Assembly: GCA_032718475.1 (NCBI GenBank)
Contig: JAUCBJ010007446.1
Span: 35,335 to 99,334, forward strand
Direction of reading: 5' to 3'
DNA: 64,000 bases
Origin: Nemertoderma westbladi
Lineage: Eukaryota; Animalia; Xenacoelomorpha
Positions within the stretch are counted from its first letter, which is position 1. Every line of letters starts with the position of its first letter. Of the stretch, positions 27,801 to 62,300 are shown piece by piece. The notes beneath the pieces are model-generated. The model was not told the origin of the DNA, made no database searches, and was given only the letters and a program-made list of their open reading frames with translations. The position numbers and the translations under genes were made by a program.

Positions 27801-27818
27801 CCCATTTTCTGGGAGCGG

Positions 27819-29060: not shown

Positions 29061-29208
29061 GGGGTGGGGTATACATTTTTTTTGTGACAGGGGGGGGGGG
29101 GGGGGGGTTGGGGGTCAAAAAACTGGAAAATTTGCGTGACATACTTTATGAACGCCCCCTAATATTGAGTAACTAAACACGAATAAAACATCCAATCAGA
29201 CAACCCAC

Positions 29209-29676: not shown

Positions 29677-32235
29677 ACTACTACTAGGATCGGCATGCTG
29701 CATTGCAGCTGCATTTGCTGCTGCAATGCAGCATTTGCTTGTAGACAAAATTGCGCCGCCACAACTCTCTATCACCCATAACATTTGCAAGATCATCCGC
29801 ATCTTCAAGGCCAGTGTCCTTTAAGATGCGTCTCAAGAAAGTCATGGGCTGTCCACCATGCTTATTCACTCCATGAGGCTGCCAAAGTACAAGATTATGC
29901 ACTGGCTGGTCCTCACGGCGAAAGTAATGTCCTGCAAAGCGGATGCGATTTTGTTCTAGTGTCAAGCTTGGGGGAACTAATGAGACACCTCCAATGTTAT
30001 ATAGTGTCTGGTTGGAGATGTGTGCATTGCCGTTGACACAATGAACCCGGCGTAGCATTCTTGTGAAAGTGCCATCCAGAGATTTGGTGTCCTCAGCAAT
30101 TAGAGCCCAGCATGGACTCCCATAGAGGAGTACTGGAACTACTGCTGCTCTAAATAATCGGACATTAATTTTCCGATTAATTCTCGGTGACTTCCAAATC
30201 CTGGAAAGCCTATTCAAGGCTGCCCATGCCTTTCCCTTACGTATTCGAAGGTCCTCACCTGACTTCCGGATCCATGATCCCAGGTAACAGAAGTCGTCCA
30301 CATGCTCAAGCATACCATCCTTTGAGCTTATGTTCATCCGATCAGAGACTTGCTGAGGACTTTCAAAGTTAACTGTCAAAATTTTGGTCTTTCTGGAGTT
30401 AATAAAAAGAGCAACACTAGAAGCAGCATGTTCTAATGAGCTGAGGAGCGGTTGGGCTCCCTCTAGTGATTCTGAGAGTACTCCTAAGTCATCAGCAAAG
30501 TCTAGATCAGTTAGGTACTTGGCAGGATTTCCTCGACTTCTGGAGCCAGTAGATGGAGTTATCATCACTCCATCATCATTATGATGATCTAAGGACATGC
30601 GTAAAACATAGTCAACCACAATTATGAACAAGAATGGTGCAAGTGTGTCTCCCTAGAGGATGCCCCATAACACTTCAAATGGTTCTGTGTCACCGTCAAC
30701 AGTAGACACAAATGTTGTCGAACCATCGTATACTGATCTGATTGCTGCAATAATTTCATCAGCAATCCCATATAATGAAAGTATGCTGAACATACGTGAA
30801 CGAGATACTGAATCAAAGGCCTTGAAGAAGTCAACAATGATAACAGCCAGATTCCTGTCTTTCCTTTTTGATAACTCTTCAATTATCCTTCTAAGTGCCA
30901 AAATGGGCTCCATGATCCCACGACCTTTACGGAACCCATTCTGATTTCCACGGAGCAGTCTCTCAATGGGATCCCTGCGATTTAATAGAATTCTATTGTA
31001 TAGCTTTGCAGCAATCGAGATCAATGAGATTCCCCGAAAAGAACCATAGAGTGTTAGGTTGGCCTTCTTGGGAACTGGCACCAACTTATTTGTTTTCATT
31101 TCTTGTGGGACTCTTGTTGTTCGGTACATGTCTTCTATGATGGGATAGATGAGCTTTTCAAGTATTTTAAAGACCTCAGGGGGAACACCATCTAATCCAC
31201 TGGCATGATTGGTCTTAATGCTCTTTGCAGCAGCCTTCACTTCTGCAAAGGAGATATCGCCAATGGGAATATCTGGGAGTACAGACTCAGACACTTTTAC
31301 TTCTATAAAGTTATCAGGCAATACCCTGTCATTATTGAGGAGCTTTTCAAAGTGGGCTTTCCAACCATTGAGGCGATCGGCTGGTGATTCAGCCTTAACC
31401 TTGGTGGTTGGTTGGCTTTTCCGCCCAGTAAGCAAGTTGATCGATTTCCATGCCTGGGATGATTGCCTGCTGTCGTCAGCATCATTGATGGCATCAACCT
31501 GTTGGTTTATTAGCTCCTGTAAATTAACAGAGTACTGCCTGTTCAGGGACCTAGATGCAGCCTTGACTGCATTCTTGGCCGCTGTAGTCTGTTTGAGTCG
31601 GGACTATTTCTGCACCTTATAGAGGTAATTTCGGCACTTCTGAATTTTGTTGTCAGTCCAGAGGGCCCTTTTCCTGTTTCGAGGGTATACAGGAACTGTT
31701 TCTGCAGCTGCTAACTTAACTGCTTCTGTGAAGGCAGTATAGCGCTCACAGTGATCTGCCGCCTCAGAGGCAAGAACCTCGTACCTGTTGCTCTGCTGTA
31801 GTGTGAAGCTGGATCTCACACTTGGCTGTTGCAACAGAGAGGACCAGTCATGCCGCGACAAGGCAGATTTCGTTGTTCTGCTAGCACGCAGACTAAGTCT
31901 TACCTTGGCCACAATAAGGCGGTGATCACTCGAGAAGGGTCGAAGTGTAAATGCATTACAGTCTTGCATAGAGCTCCTATATTTCCTACGAAACAGAATA
32001 TGGTCTATCTGGGACTTGTGACCACTGGGTCCCACCCGAAACACCCGAAAACAATCCATTTCCAGAGATAAAATCCTGAAGATGGACGGAATTTCGGTTA
32101 ACACTATTGCTATAGACCCAGGGCAATGTAGGTGATTGATGCAGACTTGCATTAAAGTCTCCCAGGAATGTTAAGAATGCATGCTGATCCACTCCATCAG
32201 TAGCTGCTTGTAGATTGTGGTATATTGGTGTCCGT
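29677..32235 (-). mobile_element. Degenerate 5'-truncated RTE-like LINE (APE endonuclease end + reverse transcriptase), frameshifted
   Basis: GDFNA, SQIDHIL, SDHRLI (APE); FRGISLISIAAKLYNRIL, QNGFRKGR, DFFKAFDSV, DLDFADD (RT). (TAG)n tail at 29677-29686. Candidate TSD TAGCCATT(A/G)CAT at 29665-29676 and 32236-32247. Confidence 0.92.
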
Positions 32236-32884: not shown

Positions 32885-34054
32885 TTACATATCTGTTTCC
32901 TCTTCCGACTCTAACAGAGCCTCAGTATCTTCTGTTTCTAACTGAGTCGACCTGTTTCTCTTCCTCTTCCATTCGATGTCTTCCCGATAATAATAGGCCT
33001 TGAATGCGACGTGCATGGCCACCCCAGCGACACAGACCATCATCCCTACGATATTCAGTGGCGACAACCTGCTGTCTCCACCGTAAAGACTCGCCAAAGT
33101 CAGAGTCAATATCTCTTTAATGACTCCGCTCACGCAGAAGCCAATGCTCGATATTCTAGAAACAAAAAGAAACTCGGACATCTCGAGAAAAAAAGCGATA
33201 AAAGCGCCGCCACTAAACTTCGTAAGGGAAAGCAGGATAATATCTAATGGCTGGTCAAACGATATAGAAGATGTAAACAGTTTACTCTCAAAAACAGCGG
33301 CTAAAGGTAACAAACCCACAATCATTATTGGTTGTACCACGAATATAACATCTAAAGGATTGCTGAGTCCGAAGTCGGCTCTTTGGGTCACCACTTGAGC
33401 CAAAGTCCATCGGATTCCGCTTAAAATGGACGCGGAAAGAACCAAAATAAAGCCGAAAACGTTAACATCCGTCTTCTTGTAGGTGAACATAAATAAACCG
33501 CCGGCTATAAGGAGCACAACGATAAGTATAGAGATGCGAGGTTTCTCTAGTTTTAGGATCAACGCGCATCCCAGAATCCATATAATAACGGTACTCTTAG
33601 ACATCGTGTATAGAGTTATTGTTATAAACATAATACTCCAGTTGGATAATCCGATATCCCAGGCGGCCGCCAAGCCGGTGGGTAGAATGGACCAGCAGTA
33701 CTGCTTACAGGATAATCCTACGGGTTGGTAACCACAACAACGGATCCTTACACAACGGGACACAGCTGCCAAAATAAATTTAATTACTAAATGATAACAA
33801 GTCATAATTAGTGGATATTTGAAGTCGCGTAGAACCCATTTGTTATAGAAGGTGAGACCTATAGAACAGCTGTAGTAGAATAAAACTAAACAGAAGACGA
33901 ATATCCCCCGATTACAGAGTTCCTTGCAGGATGGTCTATTGATGGAAGAGTCGCGAGAAATGTTGTGTTTCAGTTTAATTTTAGTTTCCCTAACAACCCG
34001 TTTGGCTTGGCGTCTGAAGTTACGCGGTTCATTGTCACTTTTAATAACAACCAT
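32885..34054 (-). CDS. SLC35C2: Solute carrier family 35 member C2-like (nucleotide-sugar/triose-phosphate transporter family), single coding exon, 389 aa
   Basis: SIGLTFYNKW, PTGLAAAWDIGLSNWSIMFITITLYTMSKST, LSGIRWTLAQ, GLSNPLD, SEFLFVSRISS...GVIKE; multiple hydrophobic segments. Probable 5'UTR intron acceptor (ttcgttgcag) at ~34171. Confidence 0.92.
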   Translation of the reverse strand: MVVIKSDNEPRNFRRQAKRVVRETKIKLKHNISRDSSINRPSCKELCNRGIFVFCLVLFYYSCSIGLTFYNKWVLRDFKYPLIMTCYHLVIKFILAAVSRCVRIRCCGYQPVGLSCKQYCWSILPTGLAAAWDIGLSNWSIMFITITLYTMSKSTVIIWILGCALILKLEKPRISILIVVLLIAGGLFMFTYKKTDVNVFGFILVLSASILSGIRWTLAQVVTQRADFGLSNPLDVIFVVQPIMIVGLLPLAAVFESKLFTSSISFDQPLDIILLSLTKFSGGAFIAFFLEMSEFLFVSRISSIGFCVSGVIKEILTLTLASLYGGDSRLSPLNIVGMMVCVAGVAMHVAFKAYYYREDIEWKRKRNRSTQLETEDTEALLESEEETDM

Positions 34055-35629
34055 TATTATTATATTGAGTTATTATTCATCGTACCAGTCTGCCAGTAGC
34101 CCTATCTGCCCATAGAATTAACCTATCGTCTTGGGGATGAATCATAATTAATTTAAGTGGCACAATGATGCTGCAACGAAACAGAACACATAAATTTAAA
34201 AATAAAAATATATACCGGTACTTAGGCTGTTAGGCTAGGCCTATGTCCCCTCAATAGGCCTACTGAAATAACTGAATCCTACCGGTACCTAATATACTAT
34301 TGTAATTTAAAGTCGACTTGATTGACGCGATACACTTAAATACAATACAACAATACACTTAATTTAATAGCCTACTGTAATAAGGAAATTTAAAAAAAAA
34401 AATACAAATTCTTTTACAAATATTAAATTCCAATAAAAAGTCGACCGAAAAGTGAAAACCTGGTCGGCGGTACATACTGACAGACTCTGAGACTGCTGTC
34501 TGGATGTAGCTGCCGATATAAATTATAAATAAATCATAAACTGCCCTACATCCTGACATCAGGCTCACAAATTAAGGTCACCTACGATTCCTACCTAGCA
34601 GGCTACCGGTATGTCCGCACTGTCATAAGGACAGTAGGATTACCGGTAGCGGTAACTAGGCGACTAGGCCTACCGAATCGAAATAATCTATATTCCTAAA
34701 ACTGTAAAAAATGCTGATAGGCCTGCTGCAATACCAGAAGGTATTAACGTGTTTGGGCAGTTGGGGGCCTCCACATAATACAGTAGGCTAATACTGTAGG
34801 CCTACTGCTGTAGGCCTAATATAAGTAACACACGTCATAAACCAATTGAGGGAAAGGAGCAGGCAGGCAGGTTACAGAACCAGGATTTTCTAACCAAAAC
34901 AATAAACGACAGAACAGAAACAGCTTTAGAAACAGCACAGCCTGACAGTAGACAAAGAATGTCGTGATACAGCATACAGCTGCTGGCTGCACAGTGTACA
35001 TGGTGTATGTCAATATGGTGTACGTAGTAGCCTACGTCTGTACGTACGTCAGTACGTACTGTACAGCCGTACCAGAAAGGCTTCATGTACAATACAGCAG
35101 TATGCAGTACAGCAGTACAGGCTGACAGGCAACAGGGACAGGCAGATTCTGGATTCTGAGATTCGATAGATTGATTTAGTTGTCGTCAGATTGTAATTTA
35201 AATTTACCGCCATTATTAAATCAGTTAATGGCAGTGATTTTTATGTCCTTTTATTTGACTTTTTGTCCTCCTTTTTTTTTACGAATTTGCATAATGAGTT
35301 TTGTTGTCCCTTTAATGACCTTTGTTGTCCTTTAATGACTTTTTTATGTATGTATTTCTTCAAACTGTCAGACCGATGATTTCTGGACTGTCAGATAGTT
35401 GATTTCAACATGCCTATGCCAAAACATTCAAAATTTGTTGATTTCTGGTCTGTCGGACAGTTGGTTTCACTATGCCTGTGCCAAAACATTCAAAATTCCA
35501 TGATTTATAGACTATGAGCTAGATTTCCATATGCGCCTGTGGTAAAAGACTCTAAATTTAATAGTTTGTGGTTGTTGTCGATAATCGATTACCACATGAC
35601 GTAGGAAAACACTCTTTTTTATAGCCAAA

Positions 35630-37870: not shown

Positions 37871-38510
37871 GGTCTCAAAGTGCATCTGTTCTTTGAGATT
37901 TTCTCAAAGTTTTTCTAAAAGTGTCTAAAAGTCATTACATTACTCCCAACGGTCGCTTTGAATTCTTGTAGACACTTTTAGTTGGGAATCTCAAAGTGAT
38001 TTCCTGCTTTTAGGCACTTTTAATTCTTTGAGAAATGTCACTTTGAGGTAGTTTGCGGCACTTTTAATTCTTTGAGAAAATAAACTCCGAGGTATTCCTG
38101 ATTGACAGCTCGTGGTAGGTTAACTGAGAGGCAGAGGCATTCTCGGGGAACAATATTATGCGGGCAACAAAGTGATACTTGTGTGTTGGCCAGTTGTTGC
38201 ATAGAAGCTATATTCCCATTAATTTATCAAATTGAGGTTCCTGAGGTCATTACAGGATGGGTTTTCGGTCGCAAGTACAAATTGAATTTACGGCACCCTA
38301 AAGTCTTTCTAAAAAACATTCATTCAAATAATACATGAAACATAATTTGTGAAACAAGATTAATGCTTGACAAGATTGATTATTTTAATAACATAATACA
38401 ATATCAGATTAACAATTAATATAAGAGAAACTTCTCTGTAGTTTCTCTGTGTATACGCAGTTTCATTATAATGACCTAAAGAAGCCCTGTTGGGAGAAAG
38501 CTTGTAATAA

Positions 38511-41500
38511 CACGAAGTGGGGCCTTCGCGCAGCAAGTGACTTAAATTTAATTTAAGTACTAATTCGAAAGTATTACTGTATTAGCAAATTTTAAGCAGA
38601 TTTCGCCTAATCACTTTTTACCTCTTTCATTTCTATTCAGACATTTCTGACTCAGCGGTATAGTGAGAACTGAAGATGAATTAGGATCTCCAGCCCCACA
38701 AAGACACAGCCTATGGATGAATAGTACATACGTACATCGGCCAAGTTTCATCTTGAATAACGGATAACGAAATGAGAGACGGATCTCACTTTCAGAAATT
38801 TCGTCGTATAGCGGCAGACCGATTAAATCTCCCCCCCCCCCCCCCCCCCCACAAAGACGCAGCATGTGGTCCAGAATATATGGCAAGATTCAGCTTAAAC
38901 TGATTAAAATCAATGAGACGGGAGAATCTATTCACTTTCAGGCATAAAGTAGTCCTATAGCGGGTGACTGTTGAACTGATTTTCAACAAAACAAATTTTC
39001 AACTTGGCAGCTTTAAATTCGACAAAGTTATAAGCATGTCAATATCATAACGACGACAACGATTTCACTTTCAGACATTTGGCCCTCTAGCGGCAGACTG
39101 GAGAACTGCAGATGGATTCGCCTCCTTTGAAAGTCACAGCTAATGGTCTAATACATATCTGCCAAGTTTCAGCTTAAACGGATTAAAAGCAAAGAAATGG
39201 GAGGGCATTTAATGTTTAGACATGTGGCCCTCTAGCGGGAGACCATTGCACTGATGGTGTCTGAAAGTCTCTCAAAAATCTCAACTTTAGCTCATATTGA
39301 TACCTACAAATTTTAAACTTGGCAGCTTTAAATCCGACAAAGTTATTAGCATGTCAAAATCGTAACGACGACAACGATTTCACTTTCAGACCTTTGGCCC
39401 TCTAGCGGCAGACTGGAGAACTGCAGATGGATTCGCCTCCTTTGAAAGTCACAGCTAATGGTCTAATACATATCTGCCAAGTTTCAGCTTAAACGGATTA
39501 AAAGCAAAGAAATGGGAGGGCATTTAATGTTTAGACATGTGGCCCTCTAGCGGGAGACCATTGCACTTTTGGTGTCTGAAAGTCTCTCAAAAATCTCAAC
39601 TTTTGCTCATATTGATACCTACAAATTTTCAACTTGGCAGCTTTAAATCCGACAAAGTTATTAGCATGTCAAAATCGTAACGACGACGACGACGACAACG
39701 ACGACGACGACGACAACGACGACGACGACAACTATTTGCATAAATTGACCCACCCCCTAACAGTGTCAATTCGCTAAGGCTCCACCAACTTCGTGGCTTG
39801 CCCCACATTATTTTGTTATTCATTTCATTAGTCACCTCAGGTCAAACCGTACTACCTTTACTGTTTATTTAATATGATAACTATGTTGACGAGAGCGCGA
39901 GAATTCCTTCTTAAAAACTAAGAAAGGCTTTCGACTTTCAAGTACGATAGAACGGCTACACGAAGTGGGGCCTTCGCGCAGCACGTGACTTAAATTTAAT
40001 TTAAGTACTAATTCGAAAGTATTACTGTATTACCAAATTTTAAGCAGATTTCGCCTAATCACTTTTTACCTCTTTCATTTCTATTCAGACATTTCTGACT
40101 CTAGCGGTATAGTGAGAACTGAAGATGGATTAGGGTCTCCAGCCCCACAAAGACACAGCCTATGGATGAATAGTACATACGTATATCGGCCAAGTTTCAT
40201 CTTGAATAACGGATAACGAAATGAGAGACGGATCTCACTTTCAGAAATTTCGTCGTATAGCGGCAGACCGATTAAATCTCCCCCCCCCCCCCACAAAGAC
40301 GCAGCATGTGGTCCAGAATATATGGCAAGATTCAGCTTAAACTGATTAAAATCAATGAGACGGGATAATCTATTCACTTTCAGGCATAAAGTAGTCCTAT
40401 AGCGGGTGACTGTTGAACTGATTTTCAACAAAACAAATTTTCAACTTGGCAGCTTTAAATTCGACAAAGTTATAAGCATGTCAATATCATAACGACGACA
40501 ACGATTTCACTTTCAGACATTTGGCCCTCTAGCGGCAGACTGGAGAACTGCAGATGGATTCGCCTCATTTGAAAGTCACAGCTAATGGTCTAATACATAT
40601 CTGCCAAGTTTCAGCTTAAACGGATTAAAAGCAAAGAAATGGGAGGGCATTTAATGTTTAGACATGTGGCCCTCTAGCGGGAGACCATTGCACTGATGGT
40701 GTCTGAAAGTCTCTCAAAAATCTCAACTTTAGCTCATATTGATACCTACAAATTTTCAACTTGGCAGCTTTAAATCCGACAAAGTTATTAGCATGTCAAA
40801 ATCGTAACGACGACAACGATTTCACTTTCAGACCTTTGGCCCTCTAGCGGCAGACTGGAGAACTGCAGATGGATTCGCCTCCTTTGAAAGTCACAGCTAA
40901 TGGTCTAATACATATCTGCCAAGTTTCAGCTTAAACGGATTAAAAGCAAAGAAATGGGAGGGCATTTAATGTTTAGACATGTGGCCCTCTAGCGGGAGAC
41001 CATTGCACTGATGGTGTCTGAAAGTCTCTCAAAAATCTCAACTTTAGCTCATATTGATACCTACAAATTTTCAACTTGGCAGCTTTAAATCCGACAAAGT
41101 TATTACCATGTCAAAATCGTAACAACGACAACGATTTCACTTTCAGACCTTTGGCCCTCTAGCGGCAGACTGGAGAACTGCAGATGGATTCGCCTCCTTT
41201 GAAAGTCACAGCTAATGGTCTAATACATATCTGCCAAGTTTCAGCTTAAACGGATTAAAAGCAAAGAAATGGGAGGGCATTTAATGTTTAGACATGTGGC
41301 CCTCTAGCGGGAGACCATTGCACTGATGGTGTCTGAAAGTCTCTCAAAAATCTCAACTTTTGCTCATATTGATACCTACAAATTTTCAACTTGGCAGCTT
41401 TAAATCCGACAAAGTTATTAGCATGTCAAAATCGTAACGACGACGACGACGACAACGACGACGACGACGACAACGACGACGACGACGATGACAACTATTT

Positions 41501-43202
41501 GCATAAATTGACCCACCCCCTAACAGTGTCAATTCGCTAAGGCTCCGCCAACTTCGTGGCTCGCCCCACATTATTTTGTTATTCATTTCATTAGTCACCT
41601 CAGGTCAAACCGTACTACCTTTACTGTTTATTTAATATGATAACTATGTTGACGAGAGCGCGAGAATTCCTTCTTAAAAACTAAGAAAGGCTTTCGACTT
41701 TCAAGTACGATAGAACGGCTACACGAAGTGGGGCCTTCGCGCAGCACATGACTTAAATTTAATTTAAGTACTAATTCGAAAGTATTACTGTATTAGCAAA
41801 TTTTAAGCAGATTTCACCTAATCACTTTTTACCTCTTTCATTTCTATTCAGACATTTCTGACTCTAGCGGTATAGTGAGAACTGAAGATGGATTAGGGTC
41901 TCCAGCCCCACAAAGACACAGCCTATGGATGAATAGTACATACGTACATCGGCCAAGTTTCATCTTGAATAACGGATAACGAAATGAGAGACGGATCTCA
42001 CTTTCAGAAATTTCGTCGTATAGCGGCAGACCGATTAAATCTCCCCCCCCCCCCCCCCACAAAGACGCAGCATGTGGTCCAGAATATATGGCAAGATTCA
42101 GCTTAAACTGATTAAAATCAATGAGACGGGAGAATCTATTCACTTTCAGGCATAAAGTAGTCCTATAGCGGGTGACTGTTGAACTGATTTTCAACAAAAC
42201 AAATTTTCAACTTGGCAGCTTTAAATTCGACAAAGTTATAAGCATGTCAATATCATAACGACGACAACGATTTCACTTTCAGACATTTGGCCCTCTAGCG
42301 GCAGACTGGAGAACTGCAGATGGATTCGCCTCCTTTGAAAGTCACAGCTAATGGTCTAATACATATCTGCCAAGTTTCAGCTTAAACGGATTAAAAGCAA
42401 AGAAATGGGAGGGCATTTAATGTTTAGACATGTGGCCCTCTAGCGGGAGACCATTGCACTGATGGTGTCTGAAAGTCTCTCAAAAATCTCAACTTTAGCT
42501 CATATTGATACCTACAAATTTTCAACTTGGCAGCTTTAAATCCGACAAAGTTATTAGCATGTCAAAATCGTAACGACGACAACGATTTCACTTTCAGACC
42601 TTTGGCCCTCTAGCGGCAGACTGGAGAACTGCAGATGGATTCGCCTCCTTTGAAAGTCACAGCTAATGGTCTAATACATATCTGCCAAGTTTCAGCTTAA
42701 ACGGATTAAAAGCAAAGAAATGGGAGGGCATTTAATGTTTAGACATGTGGCCCTCTAGCGGGAGACCATTGCACTGATGGTGTCTGAAAGTCTCTCAAAA
42801 ATCTCAACTTTAGCTCATATTGATACCTACAAATTTTCAACTTGGCAGCTTTAAATCCGACAAAGTTATTAGCATGTCAAAATCGTAACGACGACAACGA
42901 TTTCACTTTCAGACCTTTGGCCCTCTAGCGGCAGACTGGAGAACTGCAGATGGATTCGCCTCCTTTGAAAGTCACAGCTAATGGTCTAATACATATCTGC
43001 CAAGTTTCAGCTTAAACGGATTAAAAGCAAAGAAATGGGAGGGCATTTAATGTTTAGACATGTGGCCCTCTAGCGGGAGACCATTGCACTGATGGTGTCT
43101 GAAAGTCTCTCAAAAATCTCAACTTTAGCTCATATTGATACCTACAAATTTTCAACTTGGCAGCTTTAAATCCGACAAAGTTATTAGCATGTCAAAATCG
43201 TA

Positions 43203-43240
<38 letters not shown>

Positions 43241-43998
43241 AACGACGACGACGACGACAACGACGATGACAACGACGACGACGACGACAACTATTTGCAT
43301 AAATTGACCCACCCCCTAACAGTGTCAATTCGCTAAGGCTCCGCCAACTTCGTGGCTCGCCCCACATTATTTTGTTATTCATTTCATTAGTCACCTCAGG
43401 TCAAACCGTACTACCTTTACTGTTTATTTAATATGATAACTATGTTGACGAGAGCGCGAGAATTCCTTTCTTAAAAACTAAGAAAGGCTTTCGACTTTCA
43501 AGTACGATAGAACGGCTACACGAAGTGGGGCCTTCGCGCAGCACGTGACTTAAATTTAATTTAAGTACTAATTCGAAAGTATTACTGTATTAGCAAATTT
43601 TAAGCAGATTTCGCCTAATCACTTTTTACCTCTTTCATTTCTATTCAGACATTTCTGACTCTAGCGGTATAGTGAGAACTGAAGATGGATTAGGGTCTCC
43701 AGCCCCACAAAGACACAGCCTATGGATGAATAGTACATACGTACATCGGCCAAGTTTCATCTTGAATAACGGATAACGAAATGAGAGACGGATCTCACTT
43801 TCAGAAATTTCGTCGTATAGCGGCAGACCGATTAAATCTCCCCCCCCCCCCCCCCCCACAAAGACGCAGCATGTGGTCCAGAATATATGGCAAGATTCAG
43901 CTTAAACTGATTAAAATCAATGAGACGGGAGAATCTATTCACTTTCAGGCATAAAGTAGTCCTATAGCGGGTGACTGTTGAACTGATTTTCAACAAAA
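38511..43998 (+). mobile_element. Head-to-tail array (3 full + 1 partial) of a 1.45-1.8-kb non-autonomous Helentron-like (HINE-type) element
   Basis: Units start CACGAAGTGGGGCCTTCGCG at 38511, 39959, 41722, 43519. Each has 2-3 internal ~315-bp repeats, a (GAC)n microsatellite, and an imperfect inverted copy of the start (CGCTAAGGCTCCGCCAACTTCGTG) near its end. Confidence 0.65.
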
Positions 43999-43999
43999 C

Positions 44000-45413
44000 T
44001 ACAGTAAATACAGCAGTACCGGTTAGGACAGTTGGGCCTACAGACCTACAGAAGTACCGGTTCTGGCAGTTGGACCTACGGACCTACAGCAGTACCGGTT
44101 CTGGCAGTTGGGCCTACTGACCTACAGAAGTACCGGTTCAGGTTTACCGGTCACTACGGTATTTTGCAACCTTATTGCCTACTGCAATAAGATCGTTAAC
44201 TGTTACTGTTCGCGCTTTTGAAGACCTTTAGCAGTTTAACCTGCCAAAATTTATATGTCTTTTAGTTAATTAAAACACCTTTAGCATACGACAATATTTT
44301 ATGCTAATACACAAAACATTAGCCGAAGTCAGCCCATGCGCGATCATTCACCCGATGGATCTACACCCGGGAGGCTGAATTCGGATGCTTAAATTTTATT
44401 ATTGCAGTGTAAGGTTGCAGTGTAAACCTACTGTATTATTCGATAGATCGTTAATAATTAATTTCTGACAGATATTATTGGCTTTCGGGAAATATTAACA
44501 GTTCCTTTAGGACGTGGCGCTCTATCTATTTAAACAGAACTAGGACTTATACTAAACGCAACGATACCGCTTATGATTAAAGTATAAGGCGTATTCTTTA
44601 GGAAATACTTTGTTACCAATCACAATCATGCACACTATTCTGCCGACCGTCAGTATATTTGATCACACATAAAGAGAGCAGCAATTGACTCATGTAGGGT
44701 CTGCTAAATAACATTAGATTCAATACACACCACATTAATATAAATCGCAATTGTTATATATAGCCTGTCTCTCTAACCTGTAGTGTATCAAGAAAATTGG
44801 GAAATTTGGGTGATTTATCCGTATTCTCCAAAGGGCAATATTTCATCAACAAATAGATACAATTAATAACTGACGGTAAATAACAGTACAAACAATATGA
44901 TTAGTGCAGTTAAATTAAATGATTGAGACTTATTAAGTAAGTTAAGTTGAGTTAGGTAACAGTTATACTTTCGGTAATTTAAGCAGTTTTACTAGAGTTC
45001 TTCCCAAAAGCCGGTGTTATGGCGAAAAATGGGAACATAACAACAGAATCATATGAAGAATCATATGACTAGAATGACTATACGAGGATACCAACTACCC
45101 TTATTCCACGAAGCTCCCGTTCAACACAGAGGATGAGCATAGAGATAGGAAATTCAGTTCAGTAGCTCTGGGATAGGTCGAAATCAACGCCCACTCAAAT
45201 TCTATTGGCCGACACGGACAGCAGGGCAGAGGCAACCTCCCTAAGCTGGTTGGCCGATTAAACTGAGCCCAGATATCTCCGTACAGCACATCAGCCAATA
45301 AGCTGGTAGCTTGCACTATTTTAGTTATAAATCCCTTTGAGAGTATTCTAGCGACCGGGGGGGAACTGGCCAGCAAAGGCAAACGTATCAGTTATCCCAC
45401 AAAAGCTTTTACA
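44000..45413 (-). mobile_element. Diverged relative of the BEL/Pao element: 5' LTR (44207-45413) plus start of the internal leader
   Basis: Minus strand starts TGTAAAAGCTTTTG and ends GCGCGAACA like the intact LTR. Shared blocks include GCGCCACGTCCTAAAGGAACTGTTAATATT, AGACCCTACATGAGTCA and TTGGCRGGTTAAACTGC. Confidence 0.88.
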
Positions 45414-48400
45414 GGTTGTCTCGGTTCCCAATTCCCTATCTGTATTCTACAGGTTGTCTCGGTTCCTACTTCCCTATCTGTATACAGGTTGTCTCGATTC
45501 CCAATTCCCTATCTGTATACTACAGGTTGTCTCGGTTCCCAATTCCATATCTGTATACTACAGGTTGTCTCGGTTCCCAATTCCCTATCTGTATTCTACA
45601 GGTTGTCTCGATTCCCAATTCCCTATCAGTATACTACAGGTTGTATCGGTTCCCAATTCCCTATCTGTATACTACAGGTTGTCTCGGTTCATACTTCCCT
45701 ATCTGTATACAGGTTGTCTCGATTCCCAATTCCCTATCAGTATACAGGTTGTCTCGGTTCCCAATTCCCTATCTGTATTCTACAGGTTGTCTCGATTCCC
45801 AATTCCCTATCAGTATACTACAGGTTGTATCGGTTCCCAATTCACTATCTGTATACTACAGGTTGTCTCGATTCCCAATTCCCTATCAGTATACTACAGG
45901 TTGTCTCGGTTCCCAATTCCCTATCTGTATACTACAGGTTGTCTCGGTTCCCAATTCCCTATATGTATACTACAGGTTGTCTCGGTTCCTACTTCCCTAT
46001 CTGTATACAGGTTGTCTCGATTCCCAATTCCCTATCTGTATACTACAGGTTGTCTCGGTTCCTACTTCCCTATCTGTATACAGGTTGTCTCGGTTCCCAA
46101 TTCCCTATCTGTATGCTACAGGTTGTCTCGATTCCCATTTCCCTATCAGTATACTACAGGTTGTCTCGGTCCCCAATTCCCTATCTGTATACTGCAAGTT
46201 GTCTCGGTTCCCAATTCCCTATCTGTATACTACAGGTTGTCTCGGTTCCTACTTCCCTATCTGTATACAGGTTGTCTCGATTCCCAATTCCCTATCAGTA
46301 TACTACAGGTTGACTCGATTCCCAATTCCCTATCTGTATACAGGTTGTCTCGGTTCCCAATTCCCTATCTGTATACAGGTTGTATCGGTTCCCAATTCCC
46401 TATCTGTATACTACAGGTTGTCTCGGTTCCCAATTCCCCCTCTGTATTCTACAGGTTGTCTCGGTTCCTACTTCCCTATCTGTATACAGGTTGTCTCGAT
46501 TCCCAATTCCCTATCTGTATACAGGATGTATCGGTTCCCAATTCCCTATCTGTATACTACAGGTTGTCTCGGTTACCAATTCCCTATCTGTATACTACAG
46601 TTGTCTCGGTTCCCAATTCCCTATCTGTATACTACAGGTTGTCTCGGTTCCTACTTTCCTATCTGTATACAGGTTGTCTCGATTCCCAATTCCCTATCTG
46701 TATACTACAGGTTGTCTCGGTTCCTACTTCCCTATCTGTATACAGGTTGTCTCGGTTCCCAATTCCCTATCTGTATACTACAGGTTGTCTCGGTTCCCAA
46801 TTCCCTATCTGTATACAGGTTGTATCGGTTCCCAATTCCCTATATGTATACAGGTTGTCTCGGTTCCCAATTCCCTATCTGTATTCTACAGGTTGTCTCG
46901 GTTCCTACTTCCCTATCTGTATACAGGTTGTCTCGATTCCCAATTCCCTATCTGTATACTACAGGTTGTCTCGGTTCCCAATTCCATATCTGTATACTAC
47001 AGGTTGTCTCGGTTCCCAATTCCCTATCTGTATTCTACAGGTTGTCTCGATTCCCAATTCCCTATCTGTATACTACAGGTTGTATCGGTTCCCAATTCCC
47101 TATCTGTATACTACAGGTTGTCTCGGTTCATACTTCCCTATCTGTATACAGGTTGTCTCGATTCCCAATTCCCTATCTGTATACTACAGGTTGTATCGGT
47201 TCCCAATTCCCTATCTGTATACTACAGGTTGTCTCGGTTCATACTTCCCTATCTGTATACAGGTTGTCTCGATTCCCAATTCCCTATCAGTATACAGGTT
47301 GTCTCGGTTCCCAATTCCCTATCTGTATACTACAGGTTGTCTCGGTTCATACTTCCCTATCTGTATACAGGTTGTCTCGATTCCCAATTCCCTATCAGTA
47401 TACAGGTTGTCTCGGTTCCCAATTCCCTATCTGTATTCTACAGGTTGTCTCGGTTCCCAATTCCCTATCTGTATTCTACAGGTTGTCTCGATTCCCAATT
47501 CCCTATCTGTATACTACAGGTTGTCTCGGTTCCCAATTCCATATCTGTATACTACAGGTTGTCTCGGTTCCCAATTCCCTATCTGTATTCTACAGGTTGT
47601 CTCGATTCCCAATTCCCTATCTGTATACTACAGGTTGTATCGGTTCCCAATTCCCTATCTGTATACTACAGGTTGTCTCGGTTCATACTTCCCTATCTGT
47701 ATACAGGTTGTCTCGATTCCCAATTCCCTATCTGTATACTACAGGTTGTATCGGTTCCCAATTCCCTATCTGTATACTACAGGTTGTCTCGGTTCATACT
47801 TCCCTATCTGTATACAGGTTGTCTCGATTCCCAATTCCCTATCAGTATACAGGTTGTCTCGGTTCCCAATTCCCTATCTGTATTCTACAGGTTGTCTCGA
47901 TTCCCAATTCCCTATCAGTATACTACAGGTTGTATCGGTTCCCAATTCCCTATCTGTATACTACAGGTTGTCTCGATTCCCAATTCCCTATCAGTATACT
48001 ACAGGTTGTATCGGTTCCCAATTCCCTATCTGTATACTACAGGTTGTCTCGATTCCCAATTCCCTATCAGTATACTACAGGTTGTATCGGTTCCCAATTC
48101 CCTATCTGTATACTACAGGTTGTCTCGGTTCCCAATTCCATATCTGTATACTACAGGTTGTCTCGGTTCCCAATTCCCTATCTGTATTCTACAGGTTGTC
48201 TCGATTCCCAATTCCCTATCAGTATACTACAGGTTGTATCGGTTCCAAATTCCCTATCTGTATACTACAGGTTGTATCGGTTCCCAATTCCCTATCTGTA
48301 TACTACAGGTTGTATCGGTTCCTAATTCCCTATCTGTATACTACAGGTTGTATCGGTTCCCAATTCCCTATCTGTATACTACAGGTTGTATCGGTTCCCA

Positions 48401-51400
48401 ATTCCCTATCTGTATACTACAGGTTGTCTCGGTTCATACTTCCCTATCTGTATACAGGTTGTCTCGATTCCCAATTCCCTATCAGTATACAGGTTGTCTC
48501 GGTTCCCAATTCCCTATCTGTATTCTACAGGTTGTCTCGATTCCCAATTCCCTATCAGTATACTACAGGTTGTATCGGTTCCCAATTCCCTATCTGTATA
48601 CTACAGGTTGTCTCGATTCCCAATTCCCTATCTCTATACTACAGGTTGTCTCGGTTCCCAATTCCCTATCTGTATACAGGTTGTCTCGATTCCCAATTCC
48701 CTATCAGTATACAGGTTGTCTCGGTTCCCAATTCCCTATCTGTATTCTACAGGTTGTCTCGATTCCCAATTCCCTATCAGTATACTACAGGTTGTATCGG
48801 TTCCCAATTCCCTATCAGTATACTACAGGTTGTATCGGTTCCCAATTCCCTATCTGTATTCTACAGGTTGTCTCGATTCCCAATTCCCTATCAGTATACT
48901 ACAGGTTGTATCGGTTCCCAATTCCCTATCTGTATACTACAGGTTGTCTCGATTCCCAATTCCCTATCTCTATACTACAGGTTGTCTCGGTTCCCAATTC
49001 CCTATCTGTATACAGGTTGTCTCGATTCCCAATTCCCTATCAGTATACAGGTTGTCTCGGTTCCCAATTCCCTATCTGTATTCTACAGGTTGTCTCGATT
49101 CCCAATTCCCTATCAGTATACTACAGGTTGTATCGGTTCCCAATTCCCTATCAGTATACTACAGGTTGTATCGGTTCCCAATTCCCTATCTGTATACTAC
49201 AGGTTGTCTCGATTCCCAATTCCCTATCTGTATACAGGTTGTTTCGGTTCCTACTTCCCTATCTGTATACTACAGGTTGTCTCGGTTCCCAATTCCCTAT
49301 CTGTATACTACAGGTTGTATCGGTTCCCAATTCCCTATCTGTATACTACAGGTTGTCTCGGTTCCCAATTCCATATCTGTATACTACAGGTTGTCTCGGT
49401 TCCCAATTCCCTATCTGTATTCTACAGGTTGTCTCGATTCCCAATTCCCTATCAGTATACTACAGGTTGTATCGGTTCCCAATTCCCTATCTGTATACTA
49501 CAGGTTGTCTCGGTTCCCAATTCCATATCTGTATACTACAGGTTGTCTCGGTTCCCAATTCCCTATCTGTATTCTACAGGTTGTCTCGATTCCCAATTCC
49601 CTATCAGTATACTACAGGTTGTATCGGTTCCCAATTCCCTATCTGTATACTACAGGTTGTCTCGGTTCCCAATTCCATATCTGTATACTACAGGTTGTCT
49701 CGGTTCCCAATTCCCTATCTGTATTCTACAGGTTGTCTCGATTCCCAATTCCCTATCAGTATACTACAGGTTGTATCGGTTCCCAATTCCCTATCTGTAT
49801 ACTACAGGTTGTCTCGGTTCCCAATTCCATATCTGTATACTACAGGTTGTCTCGGTTCCCAATTCCCTATCTGTATTCTACAGGTTGTCTCGATTCCCAA
49901 TTCCCTATCAGTATACTACAGGTTGTATCGGTTCCCAATTCCCTATCTGTATACTACAGGTTGTCTCGGTTCCCAATTCCATATCTGTATACTACAGGTT
50001 GTCTCGGTTCCCAATTCCCTATCTGTATTCTACAGGTTGTCTCGATTCCCAATTCCCTATCAGTATACTACAGGTTGTATCGGTTCCCAATTCCCTATCT
50101 GTATACTACAGGTTGTCTCGGTTCCCAATTCCATATCTGTATACTACAGGTTGTCTCGGTTCCCAATTCCCTATCTGTATTCTACAGGTTGTCTCGATTC
50201 CCAATTCCCTATCAGTATACTACAGGTTGTATCGGTTCCCAATTCCCTATCTGTATACTACAGGTTGTCTCGGTTCCCAATTCCATATCTGTATACTACA
50301 GGTTGTCTCGGTTCCCAATTCCCTATCTGTATTCTACAGGTTGTCTCGATTCCCAATTCCCTATCAGTATACTACAGGTTGTATCGGTTCCCAATTCCCT
50401 ATCTGTATACTACAGGTTGTCTCGATTCCCAATTCCCTATCTCTATACTACAGGTTGTCTCGGTTCCCAATTCCCTATCTGTATACAGGTTGTCTCGGTT
50501 CCCAATTCCATATCTGTATACTACAGGTTGTCTCGATTCCCAATTCCCTATCAGTATACTACAGGTTGTATCGGTTCCCAATTCCCTATCTGTATACTAC
50601 AGGTTGTCTCGATTCCCAATTCCCTATCTCTATACTACAGGTTGTCTCGGTTCCCAATTCCCTATCTGTATTCTACAGGTTGTCTCGATTCCCAATTCCC
50701 TATCAGTATACTACAGGTTGTATCGGTTCCCAATTCCCTATCTGTATACTACAGGTTGTCTCGGTTCCCAATTCCATATCTGTATACTACAGGTTGTCTC
50801 GGTTCCCAATTCCCTATCTGTATTCTACAGGTTGTCTCGATTCCCAATTCCCTATCAGTATACTACAGGTTGTATCGGTTCCCAATTCCCTATCTGTATA
50901 CTACAGGTTGTCTCGGTTCCCAATTCCATATCTGTATACTACAGGTTGTCTCGGTTCCCAATTCCCTATCTGTATTCTACAGGTTGTCTCGATTCCCAAT
51001 TCCCTATCAGTATACTACAGGTTGTATCGGTTCCCAATTCCCTATCTGTATACTACAGGTTGTCTCGGTTCCCAATTCCATATCTGTATACTACAGGTTG
51101 TCTCGGTTCCCAATTCCCTATCTGTATTCTACAGGTTGTCTCGATTCCCAATTCCCTATCAGTATACTACAGGTTGTATCGGTTCCCAATTCCCTATCTG
51201 TATACTACAGGTTGTCTCGATTCCCAATTCCCTATCTCTATACTACAGGTTGTCTCGGTTCCCAATTCCCTATCTGTATACAGGTTGTCTCGATTCCCAA
51301 TTCCCTATCAGTATACAGGTTGTCTCGGTTCCCAATTCCCTATCTGTATTCTACAGGTTGTCTCGATTCCCAATTCCCTATCAGTATACTACAGGTTGTA

Positions 51401-54000
51401 TCGGTTCCCAATTCCCTATCAGTATACTACAGGTTGTATCGGTTCCCAATTCCCTATCTGTATTCTACAGGTTGTCTCGATTCCCAATTCCCTATCAGTA
51501 TACTACAGGTTGTATCGGTTCCCAATTCCCTATCTGTATACTACAGGTTGTCTCGATTCCCAATTCCCTATCTCTATACTACAGGTTGTCTCGGTTCCCA
51601 ATTCCCTATCTGTATACAGGTTGTCTCGATTCCCAATTCCCTATCAGTATACAGGTTGTCTCGGTTCCCAATTCCCTATCTGTATTCTACAGGTTGTCTC
51701 GATTCCCAATTCCCTATCAGTATACTACAGGTTGTATCGGTTCCCAATTCCCTATCAGTATACTACAGGTTGTATCGGTTCCCAATTCCCTATCTGTATA
51801 CTACAGGTTGTCTCGATTCCCAATTCCCTATCTGTATACAGGTTGTTTCGGTTCCTACTTCCCTATCTGTATACTACAGGTTGTCTCGGTTCCCAATTCC
51901 CTATCTGTATACTACAGGTTGTATCGGTTCCCAATTCCCTATCTGTATACTACAGGTTGTCTCGGTTCCCAATTCCATATCTGTATACTACAGGTTGTCT
52001 CGGTTCCCAATTCCCTATCTGTATTCTACAGGTTGTCTCGATTCCCAATTCCCTATCAGTATACTACAGGTTGTATCGGTTCCCAATTCCCTATCTGTAT
52101 ACTACAGGTTGTCTCGGTTCCCAATTCCATATCTGTATACTACAGGTTGTCTCGGTTCCCAATTCCCTATCTGTATTCTACAGGTTGTCTCGATTCCCAA
52201 TTCCCTATCAGTATACTACAGGTTGTATCGGTTCCCAATTCCCTATCTGTATACTACAGGTTGTCTCGGTTCATACTTCCCTATCTGTATACAGGTTGTC
52301 TCGATTCCCAATTCCCCATCTGTATACTACAGGTTGTCTCAGTTCCTATTTCCCTATCTGTATACTACAGGTTGTATCGGTTCCCAATTCCCTATCTGTA
52401 TACTACAGGTTGTCTCGATTCCCAATTCCCTATCTGTATACAGGTTGTTTCGGTTCCTACTTCCCTATCTGTATACTACAGGTTGTCTCGGTTCCCAATT
52501 CCCTATCTGTATACTACAGGTTGTCCCGGTTCCCAATTCCCTATCTGTATACAGGTTGTCTCGGTTCCCAATTCCCTATCTGTATACTACAGGTTGTATC
52601 GGTTCCCAATTCCATATCTGTATACAGGTCGTATCGGTTCCCAATTCCCTATCTGTATACAGGTTGTCTCAGTTCCCAATTCCCTATCTGTATACAGATT
52701 GTCTCGGTTGCCAATTCCCTATCTGTATACTACAGGTTGTATCGGTTCCCAATTCCCTATCTGTATACAGGTTGTCTCGGCTCCCAATTCCCTATCTGTA
52801 TACTACAGGTTGTCTCAGCTCCCAATTCACTATCTGAATACAGGTTGTCTCAGCTCCCAATTCCCTATCTGTATACAGGTTGTCTCAGCTCCCAATTCTC
52901 TATCTGTATACAGGTTGTCTCGATTCCCAATTCCCTATCTGAATACAGGTTGTCTCAGCTCCCAATTCCCTATCTGTATACAGGTTGTCTCGGTTCCTAA
53001 TTCCCTATCTGTATACTACAGGTTATCTCGGTTCCCAATTCCCTATCTGTATACAGGTTGTCTCAGCTCCCAATTCTCTATCTGAATACAGGTTGTCTCA
53101 GCTCCCAATTCTCTATCTGTATACAGGTTGTCTCAGCTCCCAATTCTCTATCTGTATACAGGTTGTCTCGATTCCCAATTCCCTATCTGTATACAGGTTG
53201 TATCGGTTCCCAATTCCCTATCTGTATACAGGTTGTCTCGGTTCCTAATTCCCTATCTGTATACTACAGGTTATCTCGGTTCCCAATTCCCTATCTGTAT
53301 ACTACAGGTTGTATCGGTTCCCAATTCCCTATCTGTATACTACAGGTTGTATCGGTTCCCAATTCCCTATCTGTATACTACAGGTTGTATCGGTTCCCAA
53401 TTCCCTATCTGTATACTACAGGTTGTCTCAGTTCCTATTTCCCTATCTGTATACTACAGGTTGTCTCGGTTCCCAATTCCCTATCTGTATACTACAGGTT
53501 GTATCGGTTCCCAATTCCCTATCTGTATACTACAGGTTGTCTCAGTTCCTATTTCCCTATCTGTATACTACAGGTTGTCTCGGTTCCCAATTCCCTATCT
53601 GTATTCTACAGGTTGTATCGGTTCCCAATTCCCTATCTGTATACTACAGGTTGTATCGGTTCCTAATTCCCTATCTGTATACTACAGGTTGTATCGGTTC
53701 CCAATTCCCTATCTGTATACTACAGGTTGTATCGGTTCCCAATTCCCTATCTGTATACTACAGTTGTATCGGTTCCTAATTCCCTATCTGTATACTACAG
53801 GTTGTATCGGTTCCCAATTCCCTATCTGTATACTACAGGTTGTCTCGGTTCCCAATTCCCTATCTGTATACAGGTTGTCTCAGCTCCCAATTCCCTATCT
53901 GTATACAGGTTGTATCGGTTCCCAATTACCTATCTGTATACAGGTTGTCTCGGATCCCAATTACCTATCTGTATTCAGGTTGTATTGGTTCCCAATTCTT
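45411..54000. repeat. 38/35-bp satellite (~230 copies) with a local 152-bp (4-mer) higher-order period
   Basis: Unit ACAGGTTGTCTCGGTTCCCAATTCCCTATCTGTAT(ACT). The CCATATC variant recurs every 152 bp from 49371 to 50283. Confidence 0.97.
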
Positions 54001-59279: not shown

Positions 59280-59304
59280 CTACAAATATAAAAACATTGT
59301 TTTT

Positions 59305-62300
59305 GTTTCAGGTTATTCCAACTACCAACCTGTTTCAGTTTATTCCAACTACCAACCTGTTTCAGTTTATTCCAACTACCAACCTGTTACAGTTTTTTCC
59401 AAATAATGTTTCACTTTATTCCAACTACCAACCTGTTTCAGTTTATTCCAACTACCAACCTGTAACAGTTTATTCTATCCAACTACCAACCTGTTTCAGT
59501 TTATTCCAACTAATGTTTCAGTTTATTCCAACTACCAACCTGTTTCAGTTTATTCCAACTACCAACCTGTAACAGTTTATTCTATCCAACTACCAACCTG
59601 TTTCAGTTTATTCCAACTAATGTTTCAGTTTATTCCAACTACCAACCTGTTACAGTTTATTCCAACTACCAACCTGTTACAGTTTTTTCCAAATAATGTT
59701 TCACTTTATTCCAACTACCAACCTGTTTCAGTTTATTCCAACTACCAACCTGTAACAGTTTATTCTATCCAACTACCAACCTGTTTCAGTTTATTCCAAC
59801 TAATGTTTCAGTTTATTCCAACTACCAACCTGTTACAGTTTTTTCCAAATAATGTTTCACTTTATTCCAACTACCAACCTGTTTCAGTTTATTCCAACTA
59901 CCAACCTGTAACAGTTTATTCTATCCAACTACCAACCTGTTTCAGTTTATTCCAACTAATGTTTCAGTTTATTCCAACTACCAACCTGTTTCAGTTTATT
60001 CCAACTACCAACCTGTAACAGTTTATTCTATCCAACTACCAACCTGTTTCAGTTTATTCCAACTAATGTTTCAGTTTATTCCAACTACCAACCTGTTACA
60101 GTTTATTCCAACTAATGTTACAGTTTATTCCAACTACCAACCTGTTACAGTTTATTCCAAATAATGTTTCAGTTTATTCCAACTACCAACCTGTTTCAGT
60201 TTATTCCAACTACCAACCTGTTTCAGTTTATTCCAACTACCAACCTGTTACAGTTTTTTCCAAATAATGTTTCACTTTATTCCAACTACCAACCTGTTTC
60301 AGTTTATTCCAACTACCAACCTGTAACAGTTTATTCTATCCAACTACCAACCTGTTTCAGTTTATTCCAACTAATGTTTCAGTTTATTCCAACTACCAAC
60401 CTGTTTCAGTTTATTCCAACTACCAACCTGTAAAAGTTTATTCTATCCAACTACCAACCTGTTTCAGTTTATTCCAACTAATGTTTCAGTTTATTCCAAC
60501 TACCAACCTGTTACAGTTTATTCCAACTACCAACCTGTTACAGTTTTTTCCAAATAATGTTTCACTTTATTCCAACTACCAACCTGTTTCAGTTTATTCC
60601 AACTACCAACCTGTAACAGTTTATTCTATCCAACTACCAACCTGTTTCAGTTTATTCCAACTAATGTTTCAGTTTATTCCAACTACCAACCTGTTACAGT
60701 TTTTTCCAAATAATGTTTCACTTTATTCCAACTACCAACCTGTTTCAGTTTATTCCAACTACCAACCTGTAACAGTTTATTCTATCCAACTACCAACCTG
60801 TTTCAGTTTATTCCAACTAATGTTTCAGTTTATTCCAACTACCAACCTGTTTCAGTTTATTCCAACTACCAACCTGTAACAGTTTATTCTATCCAACTAC
60901 CAACCTGTTTCAGTTTATTCCAACTAATGTTTCAGTTTATTCCAACTACCAACCTGTTACAGTTTATTCCAACTAATGTTACAGTTTATTCCAACTACCA
61001 ACCTGTTACAGTTTATTCCAAATAATGTTTCAGTTTATTCCAACTACCAACCTGTTTCAGTTTATTCCAACTACCAACCTGTATCAGTTTATTCTATCCA
61101 ACTACCAACCTGTTTCAGTTTATTCCAACTACCAAACTGTTTCAGTTTATTCAAACCTCCAACCTGTTTCAGTTTATTCCAACTACCAACATGTTACCGT
61201 TTATTCAAACTACCAACCTGTTTCAGTTTATTCCAACTACCAACCTGTTTCAGTTTATTCCAACTACCAACCTGTTTCAGTTTATTCCATCTACCAAGCT
61301 GTTACAGTTTATTCCAAATAATGTTTCAGTTTATTCCAACTACCAACCTGTTACAGTTTATTCCAAATAATGTCTCAGTTTATTCCAACTACCAACCTGT
61401 ATCAGTTTATTCTATCCAACTACCAACCTGTTTCAGTTTATTCCAACTACCAAACTGTTTCAGTTTATTCAAACTACCAACCTGTTTCAGTTTATTCCAA
61501 CTACCAACCTGTTACAGTTTATTCAAACTACCAACCTGTTTCAGTTTATTCCAACTACCAACCTGTTTCAGTTTATTCCAACTACCAACCTGTTTCAGTT
61601 TATTCCATCTACCAAGCTGTTACAGTTTATTCCAAATAATGTTTCAGTTTATTCCAAGTACCAACCTGTTTCAGTTTATTCCAAATAATGTTTCAGTTTA
61701 TTACAACACCAACCTGTTTCAGTTTATTCCATCTACCAACCTGTTTCAGTTTATTCCAACTACCAACCTGTTACAGTTTATTCAAACTACCAACCTGTTT
61801 CAGTTTATTCCAACTACCAACCTGTTTCAGTTTATTCCAACTACCAACCTGTTTCAGTTTATTCCATCTACCAAGCTGTTATAGTTTATTCAAACTACCA
61901 ACCTGTTTCAGTTTATTCCAAATAATGTTTCAGTTTATTACAACACCAACCTGTTTCAGTTTATTCCATCTACCAACCTGTTACAGTTTATTCAAACTAC
62001 CAACCTGTTTCAGTTTATTCCAAATAATGTTTCAGTTTATTCCAACTACCAACCTGTTTCAGTTTATTCCAAATAATGTTTCAGTTTATTACAACACCAA
62101 CCTGTTTCAGTTTATTCCATCTACCAACCTGTTTCAGTTTATTCCAACTACCAACCTGTTACAGTTTATTCAAACTACCAACCTGTTTCAGTTTATTCCA
62201 AATAATGTTTCAGTTTATTCCAACTACCAACCTGTTTCAGTTTATTCCATCTACCAAGCTGTTTCAGTTTATTCCAACTACCAACCTGTTTCAGTTTATT

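Follow-up and report, generated by a model that had tools for sequence, protein, structure and literature searches.

Two related LTR elements in the window

The window analysed here, a stretch of 64,000 nucleotides of the Nemertoderma westbladi genome, holds two related LTR elements, called A and B. Element A has a pair of LTRs and a long open reading frame (ORF), while element B consists of a single LTR with about 200 nt of leader and lies between satellite arrays; the rest of B is absent. The main features are as follows.

17287-18528, plus strand: 5' LTR of element A, TG...CA, 1242 bp, matching the 3' LTR at 1242 of 1242 positions
20657-24802, plus strand: gag-protease ORF of element A, with DUF1759, three CCHC-like knuckles, a protease motif and a short RNase H tail
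27811-27818, plus strand: purine-rich tract of element A adjoining the 3' LTR, from its sequence the likely PPT
27819-29060, plus strand: 3' LTR of element A, carrying a second copy of the predicted primer site (28286-28297) and of its putative masking partner (28677-28730)
45413-44207, minus strand: LTR of element B, 1207 bp, about 72% identical to that of A across the 3' two thirds
44000-44196, minus strand: leader remnant of element B, with a conserved hairpin (44191-44171) and then 38-bp repeats

To which superfamily do these elements belong? The ORF of element A contains PF03564 (DUF1759) at residues 526-653 (E 1.5e-11). A protein search with this ORF returned 27 matches, all with PF03564 and 26 with the Pao domain PF05380. 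Against a profile built from 28 full-length BEL/Pao relatives the ORF scores 268 bits and aligns to profile positions 163-700 and 1247-1301 of 1820. Positions 700-1247 and the integrase part of this profile have no match in any frame within the window, and in the Pol layout of element A the protease region is followed directly by the RNase H tail (positions 1247-1301). By these matches, element A is a BEL/Pao retrotransposon. Its two LTRs are identical, but it lacks RT, most of RNase H and the integrase; the preliminary description had called the element intact, which is true of the LTRs and not of the coding part. An autonomous relative must therefore supply the missing enzymes in trans.

The assignment rests on the protein, not on the type of primer binding site (PBS). 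BEL/Pao LTRs are defined by a length of 0.2-1.2 kb, TG...CA ends and a purine tract, all of which are found here. With the Belpaoviridae (genus Semotivirus) as described by the ICTV, element A shares a DUF1759 Gag, CCHC-like knuckles, a protease motif, an RNase H tail, TG...CA LTRs of about 1.2 kb and the purine tract; it differs in having neither RT nor integrase. The Tf1/sushi group is recognised by Ty3/gypsy proteins and a chromodomain integrase, whereas the Gag and protease of A are of the BEL/Pao type and its integrase is absent. All protein relatives of A are remote, with no more than 37% identity in the best 150. No relative of its Gag-protease protein was found among viral contigs, and a conserved 20-nt LTR motif had 0 matches in metagenome contigs. 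Among 44 metagenome BEL/Pao Gags, the Gag of A joins by a long branch and has no placement.

No target-site duplication is present at element A: the left flank ends in a T run and the right flank begins with GGGGT, while a duplication of 4-6 bp is given for LTR elements in the available part of one source (PMC8220671). Integrase-free insertion through PBS or PPT homology was considered as an explanation for the missing duplication and rejected, as the flanks resemble neither. Element A lies within a short element with inverted ends, probably a MITE, whose arms (17162-17216 and 29133-29187) are 76% identical; the regions 17162-17286 and 29061-29187 of this inverted-end element flank A on either side. 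The 3 kb between the ORF and the 3' LTR (24803-27818) contain short ORFs; the two that were searched, 26356-26760 and 27525-27740, have no Pfam match, and the second ends in a basic run.

Elsewhere in the window, RVT_1 fragments occur in two consecutive ORFs at 29684-31603 (minus strand); they do not match the BEL/Pao profile and probably belong to a decayed non-LTR element. An SLC35C2-like gene in a single frame lies at 32885-34069 (minus strand), with a long branch and at most about 50% identity to animal relatives. Satellite arrays occupy 1-6637, 10995-14167, 15044-16759, 38510-43999, 45410-53998 and 59304-63996, with units of 87, 61, 66, 38 and 27 bp, besides one tandem block measuring about 1.76 kb; two of these arrays enclose B.

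The PBS and its complement inside the LTR

In both elements, the bases that follow the LTR are the exact complement of a stretch inside the LTR itself.

18529-18540, plus strand: PBS of A, TTAAAGGATATA, 0 nt from the LTR end, no TGG
17754-17765, plus strand: predicted self-primer site of A, complementary to the A PBS at all 12 nt
44206-44197, minus strand: PBS of B, GTAACAGTTA, directly after the B LTR
44965-44956, minus strand: predicted self-primer site of B, exact complement of the B PBS over 10 nt
18545-18567, plus strand: predicted conserved hairpin directly 3' of the A PBS

The arrangement in B, including the PBS on the minus strand and its complement, agrees with the preliminary description. 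The distance from the start of the site to the LTR end had been estimated there at about 775 nt in the plus-strand element and 760 nt in the other, and was measured as 775 nt (A) and 759 nt (B). The claim that the two PBSs differ at 4 of 10 positions, each difference being mirrored in the LTR site, was confirmed for positions 1, 5, 6 and 8. Positional homology had been left to be checked by alignment. Pairwise alignment placed both LTR sites and both PBSs in register in 6 of 6 parameter sets; in a MAFFT alignment the LTR sites are in register but the PBS is shifted by 2 columns. The flanks of the PBS are conserved: A and B have the LTR end GCGCGAACA in common, agree in all of the final 11 LTR bases, and hardly differ in the hairpin on the 3' side. 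The PBS is thus a variable island, a pattern that a fixed tRNA primer would not produce.

Could the match have arisen by chance? The LTRs are AT-rich, and a match equal to that of B arose in 15 of 5000 dinucleotide-shuffled LTRs, or in 9 of 300 under a looser test that allowed offsets and splice joints. Only 1 of 5000 shuffles reached the match of A, and a homologous site is matched in both families with different letters. With four of 10 positions differing, mirroring of every difference by chance has a probability of about 6e-5, and the A PBS finds only 5-6 nt in the B LTR, as does the B PBS in the A LTR. The shuffles, together with the stem listing described below, refute chance complementarity for practical purposes.

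BEL/Pao elements are described as having an 18-nt PBS for tRNA-Arg or tRNA-Gly, and their replication as tRNA-primed and poorly understood (ICTV profile, PMC8742986). Neither A nor B has an 18-nt PBS for the 3' end of either tRNA, and TGG is absent from the first 11 nt after the LTR in both. ARAGORN found no tRNA within the window; Rfam gave nothing at gathering score on the window and nothing on 17600-18700 at E values up to 1. By contrast, the hallmark of Tf1-type self-priming, a PBS that begins at the LTR end and is complementary to an LTR stretch, is present in both elements. When RNA from the site through the leader is folded, the PBS duplex is part of the minimum-energy structure of A and of B, and in RNA that starts at the site its mean pair probability is 0.93-0.98 in five of six folds and 0.72 in the other. 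A primer assembled across a splice joint was also considered for A and B, but such matches (8 and 6 nt) are shorter than the direct ones. Self-priming by LTR-derived RNA is the best reading for A and B, and very probably the correct one.

Comparison with known self-primed elements

Self-priming is a known mechanism, most likely found here in a superfamily that has been described as tRNA-primed. According to the available portions of the Tf1 literature, the RNA's initial 11 bases pair with the PBS and RNase H cuts after base 11 (PMC7175516), the end of the cDNA carries PBS DNA copied from the primer (PMC11042837), and the RNA adopts a 'pretzel' with two flanking duplexes, in which PBS-adjacent sequence pairs with LTR sequence (bioRxiv 2022.12.06.519325). 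Tf1, Tf2 and Tj1 belong to the Tf1/sushi group of Ty3/gypsy chromoviruses. As far as the accessible text of PMC7175516 and PMC4600332 goes, they share with A and B a PBS just after the 5' LTR that is complementary to an LTR stretch of similar length, and the use of no tRNA. A and B differ from this group in their superfamily, as seen from the BEL/Pao Gag, and in that primer and PBS are about 750 nt apart. Where the pretzel would have a flanking duplex, the 3' side of the PBS of A and B is predicted to form a local hairpin; the LTR end is predicted to form a short pairing, with partners that differ between A and B. The primer is 5'-terminal in Tf1 RNA, whereas a 5'-terminal position in A and B is putative.

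Self-priming has also been predicted for the plant Copia lineage TAR (Houba/Osr-1) and for Tcn1 of the Gypsy superfamily by the same kind of test, in which LTR complementarity of at least 10 nt begins 0-5 nt after the LTR; the consulted part of that report (PMC6317226) describes no masking partner for these plant Copia and Gypsy lineages.

How should the mirrored changes between site and PBS be understood? The self-primer would be copied into the PBS in each cycle, as in Tf1, and the mirrored changes therefore need not show selection on the pairing. For the same reason they point to priming, since replication could write a primer mutation into the PBS. The preliminary description had concluded that selection acts on the pairing; this does not follow from the PBS:LTR duplex alone, and is clearer from an internal LTR partner which that description had missed. 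All covariation reported here rests on two families, A and B.

Own-LTR matches in distant BEL/Pao loci

Is the pattern restricted to A and B? A profile search was followed up in 81 loci, namely the best 80 of 554 confirmed metagenome loci and one viral locus. The right end of the LTR was fixed by two copies in 10 loci and open in 9, and 62 loci without a usable LTR pair were dropped. An own-LTR match was found in six of the 10 fixed-end loci, each reached by 0-1 of 300 shuffles. In two of them (L069 and L007) the match is direct and 11 nt long. In the other four (L015, L018, L029 and L037) the PBS match, of 10-15 nt, runs across an exon-exon joint within the LTR, where donors are GTAAG and acceptors are pyrimidine-rich YAG; the donor pattern for this splice-joint test was set after the open-end loci had been scanned. 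Two further loci, L045 and L047, have a TGG-type PBS and no self match. The remaining two are L012 and L038, the latter being the same as L037 at these sites; the LTR end is not a clean ACA in L007, L012 and L038. The nine open-end loci were searched for direct matches only, and one family (L005/L006) has a match of 10 nt, a count that comes without a null.

The trait is thus widespread among BEL/Pao elements, but as these loci are distant and A is not placed among them, homology to the arrangement in A is not implied. The preliminary description had preferred an RNA self-primer over a fixed tRNA. This preference is upheld by the missing TGG, the zero spacing between LTR and PBS, a match that tracks the element's own LTR, and the same pattern in these distant loci.

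An improbable alternative is that the pairing is purely structural, serving circularisation with the 3' copy, dimerisation, packaging or a translation switch, and that a tRNA fragment or another host RNA primes. The LTR does contain other co-varying helices unrelated to the PBS, half-tRNA primers without TGG occur in plant Copia lineages (PMC6317226, available text), and priming in A and B is deduced rather than observed. Nevertheless, the duplex begins at the first base after the LTR, the required seat of the primer 3' end, in A, B, L037 and L069 (the offset is 2-3 nt in the other four elements), and a host primer would keep the PBS constant, yet it is the PBS that varies between conserved flanks.

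A second partner of the primer site

In both LTRs, the primer site has a second possible partner, an internal segment about 390 nt downstream. The site and about 20 nt upstream of it are predicted to pair with this segment by three helices around a hairpin, and this pairing and that with the PBS are mutually exclusive.

18145-18198, plus strand: masking partner in A, from predicted structure and covariation
18145-18151 with 17760-17766, plus strand: helix a of A, predicted
18175-18182 with 17751-17758, plus strand: helix b of A, predicted
18186-18198 with 17735-17747, plus strand: helix c of A, predicted
18154-18171, plus strand: predicted inner hairpin of A, between helices a and b
17735-17753, plus strand: upstream arm of A (helix c and the outer part of helix b), which extends the masking helix
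44566-44617, minus strand: masking partner in B, in segments 44617-44611, 44587-44579 and 44573-44566
18369-18416, plus strand: predicted helix near the R/U5 border, three two-sided changes in 7 pairs

Each of the four primer differences has its mirrored counterpart in the internal segment, and so do two more changes just upstream of the site. In the MAFFT alignment, helix a has two-sided changes in 3 of 7 pairs and helix b in 3 of 8, the latter with one additional G-U change; no pair is broken, and helices a and b together have six two-sided changes in 15 pairs. RNAalifold predicts both helices unprompted. For helix c, which is likewise predicted in A and in B, the MAFFT alignment is out of register. 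When every stem of at least 6 bp that both families can form at aligned columns was listed (n = 99), at least three two-sided changes were found in only three: site:PBS (4/10), helix a (3/7) and the R/U5 helix (3/7). Three stems of at least 7 bp have at least three such changes; among 1500 shuffles of local columns, none produced three such stems and 54 produced one. As A and B are also the two sequences from which the helices were picked, some of the controls are biased in their favour. Primer copying cannot rewrite the internal segment, and selection on the pairing is therefore the simpler reading there.

Energy predictions point to a competition between the two partners. For a 36-nt segment around the site, the best duplex partner in both LTRs is the homologous internal element. 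With the roughly 20 upstream bases included, the internal partner is favoured (-18.0 kcal/mol in A and -20.5 in B, against -12.0 and -13.2 for the PBS); without them, the PBS is favoured (-12.8 and -12.2 kcal/mol, against -6.9 and -9.4). Swapping the internal pairing between the families leaves -3.4 and -4.7 kcal/mol. The masking energy itself is not above that of shuffles, being equalled by 24 (A) and 52 (B) of 400 for the 36-nt segment and by 385 (A) and 54 (B) of 400 for a 23-nt segment; a coarser energy scan came out at 5 of 37 and 9 of 39, with a different window picked in B.

The folds depend on where the RNA starts. With more than 40 nt (A) or 35 nt (B) of RNA upstream of the site, the PBS duplex leaves the best fold and would cost 3-9 kcal/mol; in 12 of 13 such longer folds, the site is paired at the homologous location about 390 nt downstream that A and B have in common. 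With a start at 17665, a candidate initiator, the A site is masked with probability 0.68 and paired with the PBS with 0.19, and from the aligned position in B the values are 0.94 and 0. In folds of the 3' copy, the masking helix forms in B (p 0.69-0.94) and not in A (p 0-0.17), and in a fold of the full U3 and R the primer site of A is in a local hairpin rather than in the masking helix. As a pairing, the internal partner is well supported; as a switch, it is an unproven prediction of these folding models.

A simpler possibility, which is unlikely but the least so of the alternatives, is plain Tf1-type self-priming, in which the transcript starts at the site, its first 10-12 nt are the primer, and the internal helices are ordinary LTR structure without control over priming. 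A perfect match of 10-12 nt suits a primer of that length (11 nt in Tf1, according to the available text of PMC7175516). The minimum-energy fold contains the PBS duplex only for RNAs that begin no more than 40 nt (A) or 35 nt (B) upstream of the primer site, and the shuffle results for the masking energy also agree with this possibility. It does not account for the six two-sided changes in 15 pairs that link the internal segment to the primer letters and the bases upstream of them; the promoter motifs considered below also speak against it.

Several other features of these LTRs were noted. A hammerhead-like reading of the three-way junction was rejected, as a single core-like motif is present in A and absent in B. 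About 29 nt (18245-18273 and about 44522-44494) are identical between A and B in surroundings that are near 72% alike, and a 10-bp long-range helix between 17867-17876 and 18393-18402 is possible in both, with one two-sided and one one-sided change. Among the distant loci, the L069 LTR has a near copy of the PBS near position 315, a possible masking partner equalled by 4, 25 and 139 of 400 shuffles for three segment lengths; the L006 LTR has a long helix near 164-185 that is another candidate (46, 16 and 9 of 400). No masking partner was found in L007.

Transcript start, splicing and polyadenylation signals

Where does the RNA begin and end? Two signals inside the A LTR bear on this question.

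17965-18041, plus strand: predicted short intron in the A LTR; donor, branch-like motif and acceptor are kept in A and B
18347-18352, plus strand: AATAAA, the likely polyadenylation signal, kept in B at 44400-44395

The position of AATAAA, about 570-590 nt downstream of the primer site, places the internal segment inside R, so that the 3' copy would hold the primer, the upstream bases and the partner together. The splice and promoter motifs used here are consensus patterns, not fitted models. In both families the primer site is bracketed by a donor-like GT (17732 in A, 44992 in B), weak in B, and an acceptor-like CAG ending at 17881 (A) or 44870 (B), with a branch-like motif directly after the site. 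Between 17766 and 17881 there are five CTGAY motifs in about 85 nt, and B has similar branch-like repeats; in A, an AG-free stretch of 132 nt ends at the conserved CAG.

Some observations point to a start at the primer site, namely the match length of 10-12 nt and the fold preference. Others point to a start further upstream: the upstream bases needed by helices b and c, the GT/CAG bracket, and the TATATAA motif of some distant loci. This motif lies 124, 135 and 133 nt upstream of the matching site in L069, L018 and L029, respectively (three of nine elements examined), which suggests, as far as a motif can, that their primers are about 100 nt from the RNA 5' end, unlike that of Tf1. A start some 100 nt before the site argues against plain Tf1-type self-priming, as does the lack of a TATA-like motif about 30 nt upstream of the primer site in A and B.

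The splice-like bracket, the branch-like motif and the AG-free stretch in A would also suit a primer from another form of RNA processing, either an excised intron containing the site or the 3' end of a polyadenylated RNA, and four distant loci do match over a splice joint. This origin is very unlikely: no splicing step produces a 3'-OH where the site ends, B has a weak donor, and the conserved AATAAA is found some 570-590 nt further downstream.

A proposed gate on self-priming

The reading preferred here, and judged probable, is that in these two BEL/Pao families a 10-12 nt stretch of the element's own LTR primes in place of a tRNA, and that the co-varying partner masks this stretch. The exact complementarity of PBS and LTR site, co-varying in both families, is the observed starting point. 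With the upstream bases attached, the internal partner is predicted to win; without them, the PBS would. Once the site is paired with the PBS, a cut by RNase H at the 3' end of the site, by analogy with Tf1, would leave a 3'-OH for minus-strand synthesis. Plus-strand synthesis would then copy the primer back into the PBS and so keep the two matched. The masked fold would be the off state, guarding the duplicate primer at the RNA 3' end, or the primer at the 5' end until packaging if transcription starts upstream.

A similar principle is known from Tf2, in which the 5' end of the RNA decides its ability to prime through alternative transcription starts (PMC5341516, in the part available). The short Tf2 RNA simply lacks the primer, whereas A and B are predicted to contain it in a folded, masked form. 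A competing second partner of the primer is predicted for A and B, and none is described for Tf1 in the accessible parts of its literature.

The co-varying masking partner of a self-primer is the new part of the finding. A full-text literature search, whose reach stopped short of Levin's original papers, Butler et al. 2001, Repbase reports and supplements, gave no report of BEL/Pao self-priming or of a masking partner for a self-primer; the same is true of the available text of PMC3601003, PMC6934838, PMC5445492 and PMC5443660. The words primer, PBS and tRNA are absent from the text of PMC3118150, as are PBS and tRNA from that of PMC554778.

More tentatively, and with slightly less than even confidence, it may be proposed that a large branch of BEL/Pao gave up tRNA priming for an RNA primer of its own and keeps it gated; some families would build this primer by splicing, and A and B would fold it into a co-evolving masking helix. 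The LTR would then be an RNA switch with two states, releasing the primer only at the right genome end or after packaging. The two natural families offer ready matched and mismatched pairs, and the switch could thus be tested with short RNA fragments.

If self-priming in BEL/Pao is true, this superfamily joins Gypsy and Copia as the third LTR superfamily with the mechanism, and the failure of searches based on a tRNA-type PBS to find these elements would be explained. Self-primed elements have a problem in common: both RNA ends carry the primer sequence, and cutting it at a wrong position or moment has to be avoided. It is on this problem that the second partner of the primer site bears.
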